The notes: generated by a model from the letters alone, not told the origin. A stretch of 33,922 bases of DNA from a virus (IMGVR_UViG_2630968639_000008), one strand, 5' to 3'; positions 18,910 through 30,566 are shown, counted from the first letter of the stretch. Program-made: numbers and translations.

Positions 18910-19336
18910 AAGCTGTGTGACGAAGTAACCACTCTTAACAGCATAACCAATTTTTTACGTACGTAAACCACTAAATGATATTTGCGAGAATGCTACCGAG
19001 TATTGAAAACACCACTACAAATACATAAGCAAATCTCAACAAATAACCAACAAATAATTTCCAGTGTTATTTTCAGCCGGTTTAAATTGAACCTTCAAAT
19101 TATAGAGCACTTATAAATAACAGCCGTTAATATAAATTGGCTAATAGATTTATTTTTATTCAGCCAAGAGCCATGAATAGGATTCGATAGAAAAAAGTTC
19201 AGATAAAAATAGAGATCTACTTCACAAATCAAACGAGAAACCAAAACTTACATCTTGAAATAATCACATTGATTAGATGAATATTTATCGCGCAGTGACA
19301 TCATTTTTTAATAATAGTTCAAAAAAAGGGCTCACG

Positions 19337-20434
19337 ATGAAAAAATTAACAGTGGCAATTTCTGCTGTAGCTGCATCAGTACTGATGGCGATGTCTGCTC
19401 AGGCAGCTGAAATTTATAATAAAGACAGTAACAAGCTGGATCTGTACGGGAAAGTTAATGCTAAGCACTACTTCTCCTCTAATGATGCAGATGATGGTGA
19501 TACTACTTATGCCCGTCTTGGCTTCAAAGGTGAAACCCAAATCAACGATCAACTGACTGGTTTCGGTCAGTGGGAATATGAATTCAAAGGCAACCGCGCT
19601 GAATCTCAAGGTTCCTCCAAAGATAAAACCCGTCTTGCCTTCGCTGGCCTGAAATTCGGTGACTACGGCTCCATCGATTACGGCCGTAACTACGGTGTAG
19701 CATACGACATCGGTGCGTGGACTGACGTCCTGCCAGAATTCGGTGGTGACACTTGGACTCAAACCGACGTGTTCATGACTCAACGTGCAACTGGTGTTGC
19801 AACCTATCGTAACAACGACTTCTTTGGTCTGGTTGATGGTCTGAATTTTGCTGCTCAGTACCAAGGCAAAAACGATCGTAGCGATTTCGATAACTACACT
19901 GAAGGTAACGGTGATGGCTTCGGTTTCTCTGCTACCTATGAATACGAAGGATTCGGTATCGGTGCAACTTATGCGAAATCTGATCGTACCGACACTCAAG
20001 TTAATGCAGGGAAAGTTCTTCCTGAAGTATTTGCTTCCGGTAAAAATGCAGAAGTTTGGGCCGCAGGTCTGAAATATGACGCTAACAACATTTACCTGGC
20101 CACTACCTATTCTGAAACCCAGAATATGACTGTATTTGCTGATCACTTCGTTGCTAATAAAGCCCAAAACTTCGAAGCTGTTGCACAATATCAGTTCGAT
20201 TTCGGTCTGCGTCCGTCCGTTGCTTACCTGCAATCTAAAGGTAAGGATCTTGGAGTATGGGGCGATCAGGACTTAGTCAAATATGTTGATGTAGGTGCAA
20301 CCTATTACTTCAACAAAAATATGTCTACTTTCGTTGATTACAAAATCAACCTGCTTGACAAAAATGACTTCACTAAAGCACTCGGTGTAAGCACTGATGA
20401 CATCGTTGCTGTAGGTCTGGTTTACCAGTTCTAA
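19337..20434 (+). CDS. OmpC/OmpF-family general porin (prophage NmpC/Lc-type), apparently intact
   Basis: 365 aa from ATG 19337 (track ORF starts upstream): signal peptide [29 protein letters not shown], porin beta-barrel hallmarks, C-terminal ...VGLVYQF; long AT-rich promoter region upstream; antisense to Q and S as in DLP12 nmpC. Confidence 0.85.
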
Positions 20435-26418: not shown

Positions 26419-26504
26419 AATTCCTCCCGCAATGAGTGTGTTACGATTTGCACCTGAAAGTCGGTTCTGTTCGCGCAGACCGGCTTTCGCCATTTCCGAA
26501 CCTG

Positions 26505-27050
26505 TCATATTGCCCCCAGCATGGTGGTGACCATCGCCATCAGTGGACCAGCCAAATCCGGGTCCACACGAAACATCGACACAATGCCTTCACTCATCTC
26601 CTTCAGTTTCTGGTGGCGTGGTGCGTTGAGAATGACAGCCTGTTTTGCCTCACTGAGTTCCTTTTCCATTTCAGCCAGCCGAGCCATGTAGCTATCCTGC
26701 TCAACCAGGTGGCCGCGATATTCCAGCGGTAGTACCGCCAGAATTGCCGGGGTCAGTTCACGCACGTTATTTCGGTATTTTTCAGAATCGAATTTGTTAT
26801 CGAGGAAGCGGAACAGCTTCTGGCGTGCACGGCTGACATCATCAGGGAAATCGATGGTGCCGCCGCCCTGCTCCCGATACTCATTCACAATGAGTGCGGC
26901 AACAACATCCTGATTATCTGCAGCCGACCAGGCGCGAACGGCATCACGGATTTTTTCGTGGCCTGGCGCCTGTTTTGTTTGAGAACGATTTATCACCGCA
27001 GTCGGGCTAAATCCGCTAGTCTGTTGGTATGTAAGTGGTTGCATAGTCAT
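26505..27050 (-). CDS. Hypothetical protein in the cII position (possibly YdaT-family)
   Basis: 181-aa ORF between cro and O on the early-right strand; not lambda CII-like in size or sequence; family assignment is a tentative recollection. Confidence 0.4.
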   Translation of the reverse strand: MTMQPLTYQQTSGFSPTAVINRSQTKQAPGHEKIRDAVRAWSAADNQDVVAALIVNEYREQGGGTIDFPDDVSRARQKLFRFLDNKFDSEKYRNNVRELTPAILAVLPLEYRGHLVEQDSYMARLAEMEKELSEAKQAVILNAPRHQKLKEMSEGIVSMFRVDPDLAGPLMAMVTTMLGAI

Positions 27051-27074
27051 TGCCTTATCAGTTAACGCCGCAGT

Positions 27075-27302
27075 TTAGGCGGCAGAATTACTCGCGTTAA
27101 ACAATGGTGCGAGGTCGGGACGAATATCTGCTGGTTTAATCTTTCCACCAGTGGCTGAGACAATTTTCATTACATAGCGGGCATCAATTCCGCCACCGTG
27201 TAGCCAACGCCAAACTGTGGGTTGGGCTACACCGCATAGATCTGCCAGTCGTTTTTGACTACCTGTAATACTGATTGCGAGTTGAATGGTTTGATTTGTC
27301 AT
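27075..27302 (-). CDS. cro: Cro-like HTH repressor (YdaS/Cro family)
   Basis: 75 aa from ATG 27302; HTH region QKRLADLCGVAQPTVWRWL; divergent from cI across the operator region. Confidence 0.7.
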   Translation of the reverse strand: MTNQTIQLAISITGSQKRLADLCGVAQPTVWRWLHGGGIDARYVMKIVSATGGKIKPADIRPDLAPLFNASNSAA

Positions 27303-27412
27303 TATCAATTCCTATTGGTATTGCAATGAATAAATAATAGCAATGCGTATTAACCCAAGCAATAGCAAAACGTGTTTTGACCATCAATACGCAAGCGTAT
27401 AAATTAAAACTT
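27303..27412. promoter_or_regulatory. Right operator/promoter region (OR): three related 14-bp operator sites with candidate pR and pRM
   Basis: Sites ATAGCAATGCGTAT (27337-27350), ATAGCAAAACGTGT (27362-27375), ATACGCAAGCGTAT (27387-27400, perfect palindrome), spaced 25 bp. Candidate pR on minus strand: -35 TTGCTT (27362..27357), 17-bp spacer, -10 TATTAT (27339..27334). Candidate pRM on plus strand: -35 TTGACC (27377-27382), -10 TAAATT (27400-27405), placing the start near the cI ATG. Confidence 0.6.
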
Positions 27413-28105
27413 ATGAAAAAAGAAACTCTTGCTGATCGCTTAAACCTAGCGATGGAACAATCTGGAATGTCTCAAGGCGCTCTTGCAAAGGCGTCTGGCG
27501 TAGCTCAACCCACAATCTGGAGACTGACAAGCGGCAACGCGCGCGGCTCAACAAAAATTGTTGAAATAGCTAATGCATTGGGTGTTCGAACAGAATGGCT
27601 CTCATCAGGCATAGGCCCGATGAGAAATGACGGTCAACAATCAGGGAAGCCTGCTGTCAGCCATTCAAAATACTTCAAGATTGACGTTCTTGATATAGAA
27701 GTCAGTGCCGGACCGGGTGTCATCAACCGTGAGTTTGTGGAAGTTCTACGCTCGGTTGAGTACTCGTTTGACGATGCTCGTCACATGTTCGATGGCAGGA
27801 AGGCGGAAAATATCCGCATTATTAACGTGCGCGGTGACAGCATGTCAGGGACGATCGAACCAGGTGACCTGCTGTTCGTTGATATCACTGTTAAATCTTT
27901 CGACGGTGATGGCATCTATGCGTTTCTGTACGACGACACTGCCCATGTAAAACGTCTTCAAATGATGAAGGATAAGCTGCTGGTTATCTCTGATAACAAG
28001 AGCTACTCGCCGTGGGACCCGATCGAGAAAGACGAGATGAACCGGGTGTTCATATTCGGTAAGGTCATTGGAAGCATGCCGCAGACGTACAGGAAGCATG
28101 GTTAA
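27413..28105 (+). CDS. cI: CI-type prophage repressor (HTH plus S24 LexA-like autopeptidase domain)
   Basis: 230 aa from ATG 27413; N-terminal HTH (MSQGALAKASGVAQPTIWRL); Ala-Gly cleavage site (EVSAGPGV), Ser in RGDSMSG and Lys in HVKRLQ; divergent from cro. Confidence 0.85.
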   Translation: MKKETLADRLNLAMEQSGMSQGALAKASGVAQPTIWRLTSGNARGSTKIVEIANALGVRTEWLSSGIGPMRNDGQQSGKPAVSHSKYFKIDVLDIEVSAGPGVINREFVEVLRSVEYSFDDARHMFDGRKAENIRIINVRGDSMSGTIEPGDLLFVDITVKSFDGDGIYAFLYDDTAHVKRLQMMKDKLLVISDNKSYSPWDPIEKDEMNRVFIFGKVIGSMPQTYRKHG

Positions 28106-28334
28106 TTTATCTACGACTTAAGGGAGCGAAGGTTAAGGTTTATACCACTCGGATTAGATATTGCACTAAATTCTCTATAAGAACGCCAAATCTGTTTGCA
28201 TATTTCAGTAAATATTCTCGTTGTTAGCTGAGATTTGTTGCTACTGTCAGCAAAATGTCCCCCTATCTCGTAGCGGTTTTTATTTCGAATCATTATGTTA
28301 AGATGTTTCTGATTATAATGAATGGAAACATAAA

Positions 28335-28715
28335 ATGAGAAAAATCCTAATCGCTGCCATGATGGCATCTCTATTGGCTGGGTGTGCTTCTTCAGGCAAC
28401 CAGCAACTCAAAAATGAAACTGAAACTAGTGTCCAGTCTAAACTTCAGGAAGGTAAAACAACCAAGAATGAGGTTAAATCTTACTTTGGTTCTCCTGATG
28501 CTGTTTCATATACTGACAGTGGAAACGAGATCTGGAAGTACGCCTTTGCAAAAGTAAAAGTTAATGGCACCACTTTTATTCCATTCTATGGATTATTCCA
28601 TAATGGAACGAACGGTACGAAAAAAGAACTTACTATTCTTTTTAACGATGACACGATTAAGAAATACACAATGTCAGAAACCCAAATAAACTCGAAATCA
28701 GGTTGGGCTGACTGA
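28335..28715 (+). CDS. Hypothetical lipoprotein downstream of cI (rex-position moron)
   Basis: 126 aa; signal peptide and lipobox (LLAGC); AT-rich; same strand as cI; followed by a terminator; mid-region resembles a BamE/SmpA_OmlA-like fold only loosely. Confidence 0.6.
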   Translation: MRKILIAAMMASLLAGCASSGNQQLKNETETSVQSKLQEGKTTKNEVKSYFGSPDAVSYTDSGNEIWKYAFAKVKVNGTTFIPFYGLFHNGTNGTKKELTILFNDDTIKKYTMSETQINSKSGWAD

Positions 28716-28723
28716 TAATCATA

Positions 28724-28750
28724 CCCGGCAACCGCGCCGGGTTTTCTTTT
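28724..28750 (+). terminator. Rho-independent terminator after the lipoprotein gene
   Basis: Stem CCCGGC / GCCGGG (28724-28729, 28736-28741) followed by TTTTCTTTT. Confidence 0.65.
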
Positions 28751-28832
28751 CCTCCCCCTCATAACTCATACCGTCCAAAAAACCACCACACCTCACTTCA
28801 GTTATCGCTATGCGATTCAAGTCACAAAATTA

Positions 28833-28918
28833 ATTCTTTTTGCTATCAAACATTTAATATCAAAACACATCAACTAATAGCAATAAGTATTGATATCACC
28901 AATAGCAATAGCTATTAT
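28833..28918. promoter_or_regulatory. Left operator/promoter region (OL) with candidate pL
   Basis: Operator-like sites ATAGCAATAAGTAT (28877-28890) and ATAGCAATAGCTAT (28902-28915), 25 bp apart, plus an inverted copy ATAGCAAAAAGAAT (minus, 28846..28833). Candidate pL: -35 TTGATA (28890-28895), 17-bp spacer, -10 TATTAT (28913-28918), overlapping the operators. Confidence 0.55.
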
Positions 28919-29024
28919 CACCATATCGCAACAACACAACGATACGGCAACCACCTGATTCACCGTTGCGATGACCGCTTAGATCCGCAGCTTGAATTTC
29001 AGCTGGCTTCGGGGAGTGCGAGGG

Positions 29025-29402
29025 ATGAAACGGACGCGTGAACGTCGGTGTGACCAGCTGAAATCAACTCAACATTTCATACCTCAGTCGCTTCAACGAG
29101 GCGGCTTAGTTATGACAACCGGCGGCCATCCACCGCCTGAATACGCGCAGAAGTCTCTATATGTTCAGCAGCCCAGCTTACGGGCAGGAGTTTTTATGGT
29201 TCATCAACATTACGGAACACAGACCGTTAATCGCGGCGCGGTCATGCCAGGAATGCTGGTCAAACACAAAGATGGTACCTGGACTGCATCAGCTAATTTA
29301 CGCGGACGGCTTTATCTGCATCGCGGCATCGAGCGCACTTATACCCGTGATTTGCTCGTGGAAGTTTTTCTCGACGGACGCGGTAACGGCCTGAATCACT
29401 AA
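29025..29402 (+). CDS. Hypothetical first protein of the early-left operon (N position; not clearly N-like)
   Basis: The track ORF begins at TTG 28992; first ATG is 29025 (MKRTRERRCDQ...), Arg-rich N-terminus but the rest does not resemble N; the stop is immediately upstream of the gam leader. Confidence 0.35.
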   Translation: MKRTRERRCDQLKSTQHFIPQSLQRGGLVMTTGGHPPPEYAQKSLYVQQPSLRAGVFMVHQHYGTQTVNRGAVMPGMLVKHKDGTWTASANLRGRLYLHRGIERTYTRDLLVEVFLDGRGNGLNH

Positions 29403-29478
29403 CCCCCCTTTCCTGTTTTCCTAATCAGCCTGGCATTTCGCGGGCGATATTTTCACAGCCATTTTCAGGAGTTCAGCC

Positions 29479-29775
29479 ATGAACGCTTATTACATTCAGG
29501 ATCGTCTTGAGGCTCAGAGCTGGGCGCGTCACTACCAGCAGCTCGCCCGTGAAGAGAAAGAGGCAGAACTGGCAGACGACATGGAAAAAAGCCTGCCCCA
29601 GCACCTGTTTGAATCGCTATGCATCGATCATTTGCAACGCCACGGGGCCAGCAAAAAAGCCATTACCCGTGCGTTCGATGACGATGTTGAGTTTCAGGAG
29701 CGCATGGCAGAACACATCCGGTACATGGTTGAAACCATTGCTCACCATCAGGTTGATATTGATTCAGAGGTATAA
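29479..29775 (+). CDS. gam: Gam (RecBCD inhibitor), 98-aa GamS form
   Basis: [37 protein letters not shown]...; matches lambda Gam. Confidence 0.9.
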
Positions 29776-29780
29776 AACGG

Positions 29781-30566
29781 ATGAGTACAGCACTCGCAAC
29801 GCTGGCAGGGAAGCTGGCTGAACGTGTCGGCATGGATTCTGTCGACCCACAGGAACTGATCACCACTCTTCGCCAGACGGCATTTAAAGGTGATGCCAGC
29901 GATGCGCAGTTCATCGCATTGTTGATCGTCGCCAACCAGTACGGCCTTAATCCGTGGACGAAAGAAATTTACGCCTTCCCTGATAAGCAGAACGGCATCG
30001 TTCCGGTGGTGGGCGTTGATGGCTGGTCCCGCATCATCAATGAAAACCAGCAGTTTGATGGCATGGACTTTGAGCAGGACAATGAATCCTGTACATGCCG
30101 GATTTACCGCAAGGACCGCAATCATCCGATCTGCGTTACCGAGTGGATGGATGAATGCCGCCGCGAACCATTCAAAACCCGCGAAGGCAGAGAAATCACG
30201 GGGCCGTGGCAGTCGCATCCCAAACGGATGTTACGGCATAAAGCCATGATTCAGTGTGCCCGTCTGGCCTTCGGATTTGCTGGTATCTATGACAAGGATG
30301 AAGCCGAGCGCATTGTCGAAAATACTGCATACACTGCAGAACGTCAGCCGGAACGCGACATCACTCCGGTTAACGATGAAACCATGCAGGAGATTAACAC
30401 TCTGCTGATCGCCCTGGATAAAACATGGGATGACGACTTATTGCCGCTCTGTTCCCAGATATTTCGCCGCGACATTCGCGCATCGTCAGAACTGACACAG
30501 GCCGAAGCAGTGAAAGCTCTTGGATTCCTGAAACAGAAAGCCACTGAGCAGAAGGTGGCAGCATGA
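29781..30566 (+). CDS. bet: Bet (Red-beta single-strand annealing protein)
   Basis: 261-aa ORF matching lambda Bet. Confidence 0.92.

Follow-up and report, generated by a model that had tools for sequence, protein, structure and literature searches.

The 33,922-nucleotide viral sequence IMGVR_UViG_2630968639_000008 (referred to below, at its full length, as the window) carries in its immunity region, between the cI repressor gene and the oL operators, a small AT-rich gene for a lipoprotein. Together with its flanking signals, this gene is very probably a moron that encodes an outer-membrane lipoprotein with the fold of BamE. A moron in the definition of Juhala and Hendrix has a deviating base composition, its own promoter and terminator, and expression from the repressed prophage; gene 15 of phage HK97, located in the tail operon and encoding a superinfection exclusion protein, was the first to be described (PMC3594210). 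The gene in the window and the elements that accompany it are:

28335..28715, plus strand: lipoprotein gene, 126 amino acids; the translation starts MRKILIAAMMASLLAGC, followed by ASSGN
28335..28382, plus strand: signal peptide, residues 1-16, with the lipobox LLAG at its end (from the translation)
28383..28715, plus strand: mature lipoprotein, Cys17 to Asp126 and the stop codon, with a predicted BamE/BLIP-like fold of two helices and three strands
28575..28607, plus strand: family-specific insertion FIPFYGLFHNG, residues 81-91, in the predicted beta1-beta2 hairpin (a 12-residue insertion relative to BamE in the hhalign alignment)
28289..28334, plus strand: 46-nt 5' element of the cassette (putative promoter and 5' untranslated region), with 70-83% identity to 8 loci
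28296..28304, plus strand: extended -10-like motif TGTTAAGAT, with TG at 28296-28297 and the hexamer TAAGAT at 28299-28304
28723..28750, plus strand: intrinsic terminator, with the stem ACCCGGC-AACCGC-GCCGGGT at 28723..28742 (7 pairs, 6 of them G-C), then TTTTCTTTT (terminator scan and fold)

Three properties mark the gene as cargo. Its G+C content (GC) of 0.383, with 0.354 at third codon positions (GC3), is lower than that of cI (GC 0.483, GC3 0.513), of the kil-gam-bet-exo block (0.521) and of the whole window (0.511). It is present in some and absent from others of a set of similar phages, in which the same cI and flanks occur with other cargo or with none, and it is found at two unrelated sites. 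It also ends in a terminator of its own, a hairpin at 28723-28742 followed by a T-run. These are the attributes of a typical moron, a self-contained cassette for which a promoter and expression in the lysogen are predicted. The first-pass annotation of the window had described an AT-rich 126-residue lipoprotein gene with lipobox LLAGC and its own terminator, and the present analysis agrees with it on both counts.

That the gene is real rather than a chance open reading frame (ORF) is confirmed by the number of its homologues (228 in a word-index search, and 1380 cluster representatives at E<=1e-3 in an exhaustive search), by the ratio of nonsynonymous to synonymous substitution rates (dN/dS), and by a full-length profile match to PHROG 3135, a family of phage proteins of unassigned role (E 8.3e-48, residues 1-124 on profile positions 1-114 of 114). 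Over codons 18-126 the pairwise dN/dS has a median of 0.024, against 0.277 in the signal peptide, and in the alignment of homologues the signal peptide is likewise variable and the mature part conserved; by these ratios the mature domain is under very strong purifying selection. A match to the NCBIfam model 'Ag473 lipoprotein' (E 2.9e-6, 28 bits against a cut-off of 100) spans residues 1-75 only and was dismissed. An antisense ORF of 85 amino acids (28111..28368) was also rejected, as it sits in a spacer without relatives beyond the E. coli group.

The lipoprotein signal consists of two basic residues in the n-region, a hydrophobic core and the lipobox L-A-G-C, in which Cys17 is encoded by TGT (28383-28385); the residue at +2 is Ala and the residue at +3 is Ser. 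According to the Lol sorting rule, lipoproteins with Ala at +2 and Ser at +3 proceed to the outer membrane and are not retained in the inner membrane. Because these residues are present, the protein is predicted by this established rule to be an outer-membrane lipoprotein, and it would be expected at the periplasmic face of the outer membrane, the default orientation for proteins of this kind. The surface exposure envisaged in the first-pass annotation is thus not indicated by the sorting signal.

Predicted transcription signals and boundaries of the cassette

The 46-nt element immediately 5' of the gene is shared by loci of all three kinds of context in which homologues occur: immunity regions, tail modules and chromosomal sites. 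At four-fold degenerate sites of the same gene pairs the identity is 0.26-0.34, which is to say saturated, and further upstream of the element it is at the background level of 0.49-0.62; the element is conserved in spite of the saturation of synonymous sites. Its most constant part is TGTTA(A/G)GAT. Among 46 distinct upstream regions, 27 contain TGnTA[AGC]GAT about 39-46 nt 5' of the ATG, and seven more contain TARGAT alone; immunity-region, tail-module and chromosomal copies are all represented. Written as TGnTARGAT, the motif of these 27 regions has a spacing to the ATG of about 36-46 nt. The motif may be read as an extended -10-type promoter, from which transcription would start near 28311 and give a leader of some 24 nt with the ribosome-binding site GGAAA.

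Other readings of the same region were considered. The sequence TAAGATGTTTCCGA, 23-36 nt from the ATG, resembles an RcsB box at about 10 of 14 positions of the consensus, and the extended -10 reading is preferred because there is no room for a core promoter downstream of such a box. No fit to motifs for sigma-E, sigma-54, sigma-28, Fur, PhoP or LexA was found when the upstream region was inspected by eye. A promoter-like site on the minus strand (28341..28312, TTCTCA-18-TATAAT), which overlaps the start of the gene, was rejected because it is not conserved: the -10 sequence TATAAT is present only in the E. coli copy, and other copies have TTGCAAT. If active, this site (28312-28341) would give an antisense transcript toward cI.

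At the other end of the cassette, a hairpin with a T-run is found 3' of the gene in 30 of the 46 distinct relatives, copies from tail operons included, and most of the others have a hairpin with a weaker T-tract. By its position, the terminator of the window would end transcription of the cassette, and any read-through from pRM, ahead of oL. Several loci have an intrinsic terminator directly upstream of the 5' element as well. Between cI and the gene in the window, neither folding nor the terminator scan gave a convincing terminator, so read-through from pRM would also be possible. The copies that lack the motif begin about 47-60 nt past the cI stop codon with no terminator between, which suggests that they are in an operon with cI. 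Expression in the lysogen is likely from these signals.

The cassette begins essentially at the end of cI, since the AT-rich stretch that follows the cI stop codon is not shared with E. coli prophage MB15:

28106..28295, plus strand: AT-rich spacer of the E. coli version of the cassette (GC 0.34 over 28106-28334), with a decayed terminator-like stretch ...GTAGCGGTTTTTATTT at about 28270-28287

The spacer has no similarity by blastn or tblastx to sequences beyond the group formed by E. coli and phage PhiR26_1. Its terminator-like stretch aligns to intact terminators that precede the cassette in loci L016, L021 and L004. The terminator 3' of the gene in the window (28723-28742) differs hardly at all (95.7% identity over 23 nt) from one located upstream of the cassette in Scandinavium (locus L016, 4940-4962), and similar hairpins stand upstream of the cassette in Citrobacter. 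Terminators may mark the boundaries at which the cassette recombines.

The cI-oL slot and a second insertion site

The gene lies within the immunity region, in the slot equivalent to that of rexAB, because cI is on one side of it and a repeat of oR with a promoter (oL/pL) on the other:

27416..28105, plus strand: cI-type repressor (Pfam Peptidase_S24 E 1.5e-18 and HTH_3 E 1.5e-6; phrog_4 'transcriptional repressor' E 9e-70; annotated cI in PhiR26_1)
28872..28924, no strand assigned: oL operators and pL, with the repeat shared with oR; pL is TTGATA-17-TATTAT at 28890..28918 (plus strand) and faces kil-gam-bet-exo (promoter scan)
27332..27384, no strand assigned: oR operator region between the divergent cI and cro, a direct repeat of 28872-28924 (72% over 53 nt)
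27075-27308, minus strand: YdaS-like cro, divergent from cI; beyond it are a YdaT-like cII and then O and P
29196-29402: kil (NCBIfam FtsZ inhibitor E 9e-17; phrog_294), followed by gam, bet and exo

The placement of the gene in the first-pass annotation, co-oriented with cI in a rex-like position, holds, with cI ending at 28105 on the same strand and oL/pL downstream at 28872-28924. The slot is indeed a site for cargo, since prophages with the same cI, and related prophages, carry other genes there or none. E. coli prophage MB15 encodes an identical cI protein (WP_001295669.1) and has three unrelated genes in the slot, a prophage of an O170:H18 E. coli has a Ser/Thr kinase and a PP2C phosphatase, and further E. 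coli prophages with the same flanks have an ASCH protein, a DUF6932 protein or an empty slot. The cI-oL slot is a site of interchangeable cargo. Lambda rexAB and the Ser/Thr kinases of the 933W type occupy the same slot in the same orientation, 3' of cI and 5' of the terminator before oL, but RexA, RexB and the kinases have no sequence or mechanistic relation to the lipoprotein, which is predicted to be exported to the envelope rather than to remain in the cytoplasm or inner membrane. The slot in this prophage family could be searched for other lysogen-expressed defence genes (L119, 2048-3513; L120, 2538-3740; and the E. coli examples).

The gene is present in 78 of 5426 complete E. coli genomes, always on the chromosome and, in every copy examined, within a prophage; the whole arrangement from cI to kil is found in 69 of the 78. 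The locus recurs in PhiR26_1 (PV340555), a phage able to grow on E. coli K-12, where the DNA is 99.7% identical and the protein, annotated as 'putative lipoprotein', 98.4%. Citrobacter, Enterobacter, Cronobacter, Kluyvera and Leclercia, among others, have homologues with 70-98% identity. Rac-like prophages contain the gene in five Citrobacter genomes; there it comes after cI, alone or with one or two further cargo genes in between, and before kilR and recET. In Salmonella phages S107, S135 and S137 the order is cI, two ORFs, the lipoprotein gene, a small convergent ORF and N. Members of the family are often found in prophages of Escherichia, Citrobacter, Enterobacter, Salmonella, Klebsiella and their relatives.

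The second site is in siphovirus tail operons. Among 18 loci from GTDB species representatives, five are of the immunity-region type and seven are in a tail operon beside the tape-measure gene, the operon comprising a tail terminator, a Big_2 major tail protein, a DUF6246 protein and a TMP_3 tape-measure protein. Among 80 viral contigs of IMG/VR, 48 are of the immunity-region type, 25 of the tail-operon type and seven unclassified. The gene follows at least three different repressor families in the 48, and in the 25 it has the genes for the DUF6246 protein and the tape-measure protein on either side, in an unrelated siphovirus tail module; in Klebsiella phage RAH1, likewise, the tape-measure gene comes directly after it. 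At 38-47% identity, the more distant homologues in Gilliamella, Oceanicola and a metagenomic lineage stand singly on the chromosome, surrounded by housekeeping genes. The picture is that of a host lipoprotein family, one branch of which would have been captured and spread by phages.

Several small genes accompany homologues of the lipoprotein gene. In most immunity-type loci outside E. coli, a small gene of 65-97 amino acids on the opposite strand converges on the lipoprotein gene, 57 to 60 nt after it (for example L003, 8413-8619, minus strand, and orf56 of phage S107); the window lacks it, and neither Pfam nor PADLOC gave a match. Small proteins with a TolA C-terminal domain are encoded near homologues in Buttiauxella and Serratia (L022, 6578-6952, minus strand; L117, 1227-1679, plus strand) and may be further envelope cargo, such as a decoy that draws off filamentous phages or colicins dependent on Tol. 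A convergent gene for an EamA-family transporter adjoins the chromosomal homologue in Gilliamella and Oceanicola (L008, 7550-8443, minus strand; L011, 7385-8269, minus strand). As a conserved partner of the chromosomal homologues, EamA was found at these two loci and not at the others, and may be a coincidence.

Fold of the lipoprotein and its relation to BamE

An AlphaFold2 model made with 74 diverse relatives (pLDDT 86.6, pTM 0.74) has two helices packed on a three-stranded sheet, in the alpha-alpha-beta-beta-beta order of the SmpA/OmlA fold, and, right behind the lipidated Cys, a short strand; the domain is BamE/BLIP-like and would be kept near the membrane. Nearest to it in structure are BamE, BLIP-like proteins and BtiO, an immunity protein of the type VI secretion system (T6SS), all of them small secreted or membrane-anchored proteins. 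No Cor or Llp entries are among the structural matches listed.

Alignment to E. coli BamE with hhalign gave a probability of 92% with 26% identity over 90 columns, and the Pfam BamE model (PF04355) gave 22.0 bits (E 1.4e-4), below its gathering score of 23.2. No NCBIfam BamE model is among the matches at E<=1. A sequence search of the PDB with the single protein yielded nothing useful, and a search with a profile yielded weak matches to BamE (E about 0.02-0.07).

The BamE residues Y28, Y37, M64 and D66 and the N-terminal extension are reported to be needed for interaction with BamA and BamD (bioRxiv 10.1101/2024.10.31.621230). In the hhalign register, an alignment at 26% identity, these four residues correspond to L25, N27, A56 and S58 of the lipoprotein, the cross-link sites L63, F68 and R78 of BamE correspond to D55, S62 and A72, and P30-N36 of the N-terminal extension has no counterpart. 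The two proteins thus share a fold, a remote homology, an outer-membrane location (here predicted) and a length of about 110-125 residues, but the lipoprotein differs in a 12-residue hydrophobic insertion, a shorter N-terminal tether and a conserved C-terminal extension ending GWAD, and the BamA/BamD contact residues are not kept. Whereas BamE is encoded by a core gene, the lipoprotein gene is accessory (78 of 5426 complete E. coli genomes) and phage-borne. On these comparisons the lipoprotein is not BamE, and its homology to BamE is remote.

The insertion at residues 81-91 is the most conserved motif of the family and the stretch of the model with the greatest flexibility and the lowest confidence (pLDDT 54-73). 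In close homologues there is no variation at F81, I82, P83, Y85, G86, F88, H89, N90 or G91; P83 and F88 are almost unchanged in close and mid-distance relatives, and P83 is so among the 74 distant ones as well.

Nearly all E. coli genomes that have the gene give it the PGAP product name 'outer membrane protein assembly factor BamE' (for example NZ_CP041422.1, 1373522-1373902), and one calls it 'BamD' (NZ_CP074001.1). The RefSeq naming as BamE is a systematic over-annotation. Clear homology to a housekeeping lipoprotein of unrelated function, which the first-pass annotation named as grounds for abandoning its proposal, was not found in substance: the relation to BamE is remote, and the mapped residues that contact BamA and BamD are lost.

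Possible functions and neighbouring genes

The cargo expressed from a prophage in the lysogen shapes which phages, colicins and stresses a strain survives. To our knowledge, only a handful of such proteins that act at the envelope have been studied, namely Cor, Llp, gp15, SieA, Bor and Lom. The lipoprotein gene is a lysogen-expressed envelope moron of this known kind, its expression in the lysogen being predicted, with a fold that in the papers and libraries searched has so far not been linked to phage exclusion.

A tentative reading, and the one that is favoured here, is exclusion at the level of the envelope. The cassette, made up of a short promoter/5' untranslated element, the 126-residue lipoprotein gene and an intrinsic terminator inserted between cI and oL/pL of a lambda-like prophage, would use an extended -10-type promoter of its own for expression in the lysogen, with read-through from pRM probably contributing as well. 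The product would fold into a BamE/BLIP-like domain held near the membrane, and its hydrophobic hairpin FIPFYGLFHNG would bind a conserved component of the envelope from the periplasmic side. The lysogen would thereby become refractory to attack at the envelope, most likely to adsorption or DNA entry of a superinfecting phage, and possibly to colicins, by a logic that recalls Cor, Llp and HK97 gp15, although the fold is unrelated to theirs. Exclusion is favoured because the gene inserts at the two sites, because gp15, Cor and Llp offer a precedent, and because the fold is shared with BamE, BLIP-like proteins and BtiO.

The proteins Cor (of phages phi80, N15, T1 and HK022) and Llp (of T5) resemble the lipoprotein in being small, phage-encoded lipoproteins with an outer-membrane sorting signal. 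Proteins of the Cor/Llp type act on an outer-membrane protein from the periplasmic side. The suggestion of the first-pass annotation that the lipoprotein might block a receptor as Cor or Llp do finds no backing in homology: the match to the Cor family phrog_1119 (E 0.022) is limited to residues 1-29, which is the signal peptide, and the fold is BamE/BLIP-like.

The likeness to HK97 gp15 (Cumby et al. 2012) is of another sort. Both genes are autonomous units of deviating GC with a terminator (and, in the present case, a predicted promoter), both are expressed or presumably expressed from the prophage, and many relatives of the lipoprotein gene are at the very site of gene 15, between a tail chaperone-like gene and the tape-measure gene. 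For both, homologues also exist on chromosomes away from prophages, a sign that a host gene may have been captured (PMC3594210). In contrast to the lipoprotein, with its predicted outer-membrane location and BamE-like fold, gp15 is a small inner-membrane protein of the YebO family, and its exclusion phenotype has been demonstrated, whereas exclusion by the lipoprotein is proposed only by analogy.

A wider form of the proposal, put forward with more doubt, is that the protein is the founding member of a new class of envelope exclusion factors. In such a class, a BamE-fold lipoprotein would engage a conserved outer-membrane protein or complex through its hairpin and block heterologous phages, and possibly colicins, across many Enterobacteriaceae, and its cassette would hop between the cI-oL and chaperone/tape-measure slots of unrelated phages.

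Several observations weigh against exclusion. Very strong purifying selection is usually not what would be expected of a protein in an arms race. The distant chromosomal homologues fit a general role in the envelope at least as well as exclusion. The same protein accompanies at least three different tail types; were it to act in exclusion, a link to the receptor of its own carrier phage would therefore be improbable. The sigma-70 consensus scan called no plus-strand site upstream of the gene, passing over the extended -10-like motif, for which the -35 sequence is poor. Finally, no paper on the lipoprotein family was found in a literature search that included PhiR26, BamE-like phage lipoproteins, SmpA/OmlA in prophages and the receptors of S107, S135 and S137. 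A search with the defence-protein models of PADLOC-DB 2.0 gave no family at E<=0.01.

The chromosomal relatives and the extreme conservation would be accounted for if the protein is instead a factor of lysogenic conversion that stabilises or modifies the outer membrane, a useful host gene carried by phages, conferring tolerance to osmotic stress, detergent, serum or antimicrobial peptides much as is assumed for Bor, for Lom and for the OsmE family, which is related in structure. That PhiR26_1 also encodes Bor, Lom, a porin and an omptin agrees with such a role, but no stress-related regulatory site was identified and no conserved neighbour points to a pathway, and recurrent insertion at two known sites of exclusion genes (after cI and before the tape-measure gene) hints at conflict between phages. 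Envelope fitness of this kind is on balance somewhat unlikely, though it ranks next after exclusion.

Membrane-anchored BamE-like immunity proteins have been described and are rapidly evolving (PMC12419801). The lipoprotein could be an orphan of this sort, a periplasmic inhibitor of an incoming envelope toxin (a T6SS effector, or a colicin M-like or lipid-targeting toxin) or of a phage-borne cell-wall hydrolase, much as BLIP acts against beta-lactamases and BtiO against a T6SS effector. It differs from BLIP-like proteins and BtiO, however, in being a single domain rather than a tandem and in having a sequence identity to them of 11-19%. No adjacent toxin or enzyme gene and no toxin-like neighbour was seen in the prophage and chromosomal contexts examined, and the dN/dS of 0.024 is that of very strong purifying selection and not of rapid evolution. 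An immunity function is improbable.

A mimic of BamE is in like manner quite improbable. Such a protein would dock on BamA and BamD in place of BamE or beside it and alter the conformation of BAM, either helping the assembly of phage-encoded outer-membrane proteins (porin, Lom, omptin) or altering the surface loops of BamA that serve some phages and contact-dependent toxins as a receptor. The residues of BamE that are key or were cross-linked are replaced, however, and P30-N36 is absent; the Pfam score is below its cut-off and NCBIfam BamE models did not match; and many carriers, among them the Rac-like prophages of Citrobacter and the phages with the gene in the tail module, have no porin nearby. 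The product name assigned by PGAP would make the gene a housekeeping bamE or a decaying copy of it, which is scarcely credible given its presence in only 78 of 5426 E. coli genomes, prophage-borne in each copy examined, the 22.0 bits against a Pfam cut-off of 23.2 with no NCBIfam match, and the loss of key residues; decay is excluded by the dN/dS of 0.024.

The role of the protein is directly testable by standard genetics in PhiR26_1, an active K-12 phage with a 98.4%-identical copy. If envelope exclusion proves to be its function, the known repertoire would gain a new fold and probably a new target, with a bearing on the prediction of host range in phage therapy; if the protein proves to be an envelope-fitness factor, a widespread annotation error will still have been corrected.

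Some neighbouring features of the window and of its relatives were also noted. Between pL and kil (28925-29195) there is no ORF for an N-like antiterminator, just a leader of about 280 nt that has no Rfam match; the related Salmonella phage S107 has its N gene at the matching position. An Rfam scan of 26500-30000 gave nothing credible, the sole match being psRNA6 with 16 bits against a gathering score of 60. Pseudomonas phages PP9W2 and B3 carry lipoproteins of the SmpA/OmlA type that are likewise uncharacterised. In addition to its lipoprotein gene, PhiR26_1 carries Bor, Lom, a porin annotated as OmpD, an omptin and the defence gene PD-lambda-1. An ORF of 385 amino acids in the window (19277-20434, plus strand), located between the Q/lysis region and the replication genes, presumably encodes the same phage-borne porin that is annotated as OmpD in PhiR26_1.

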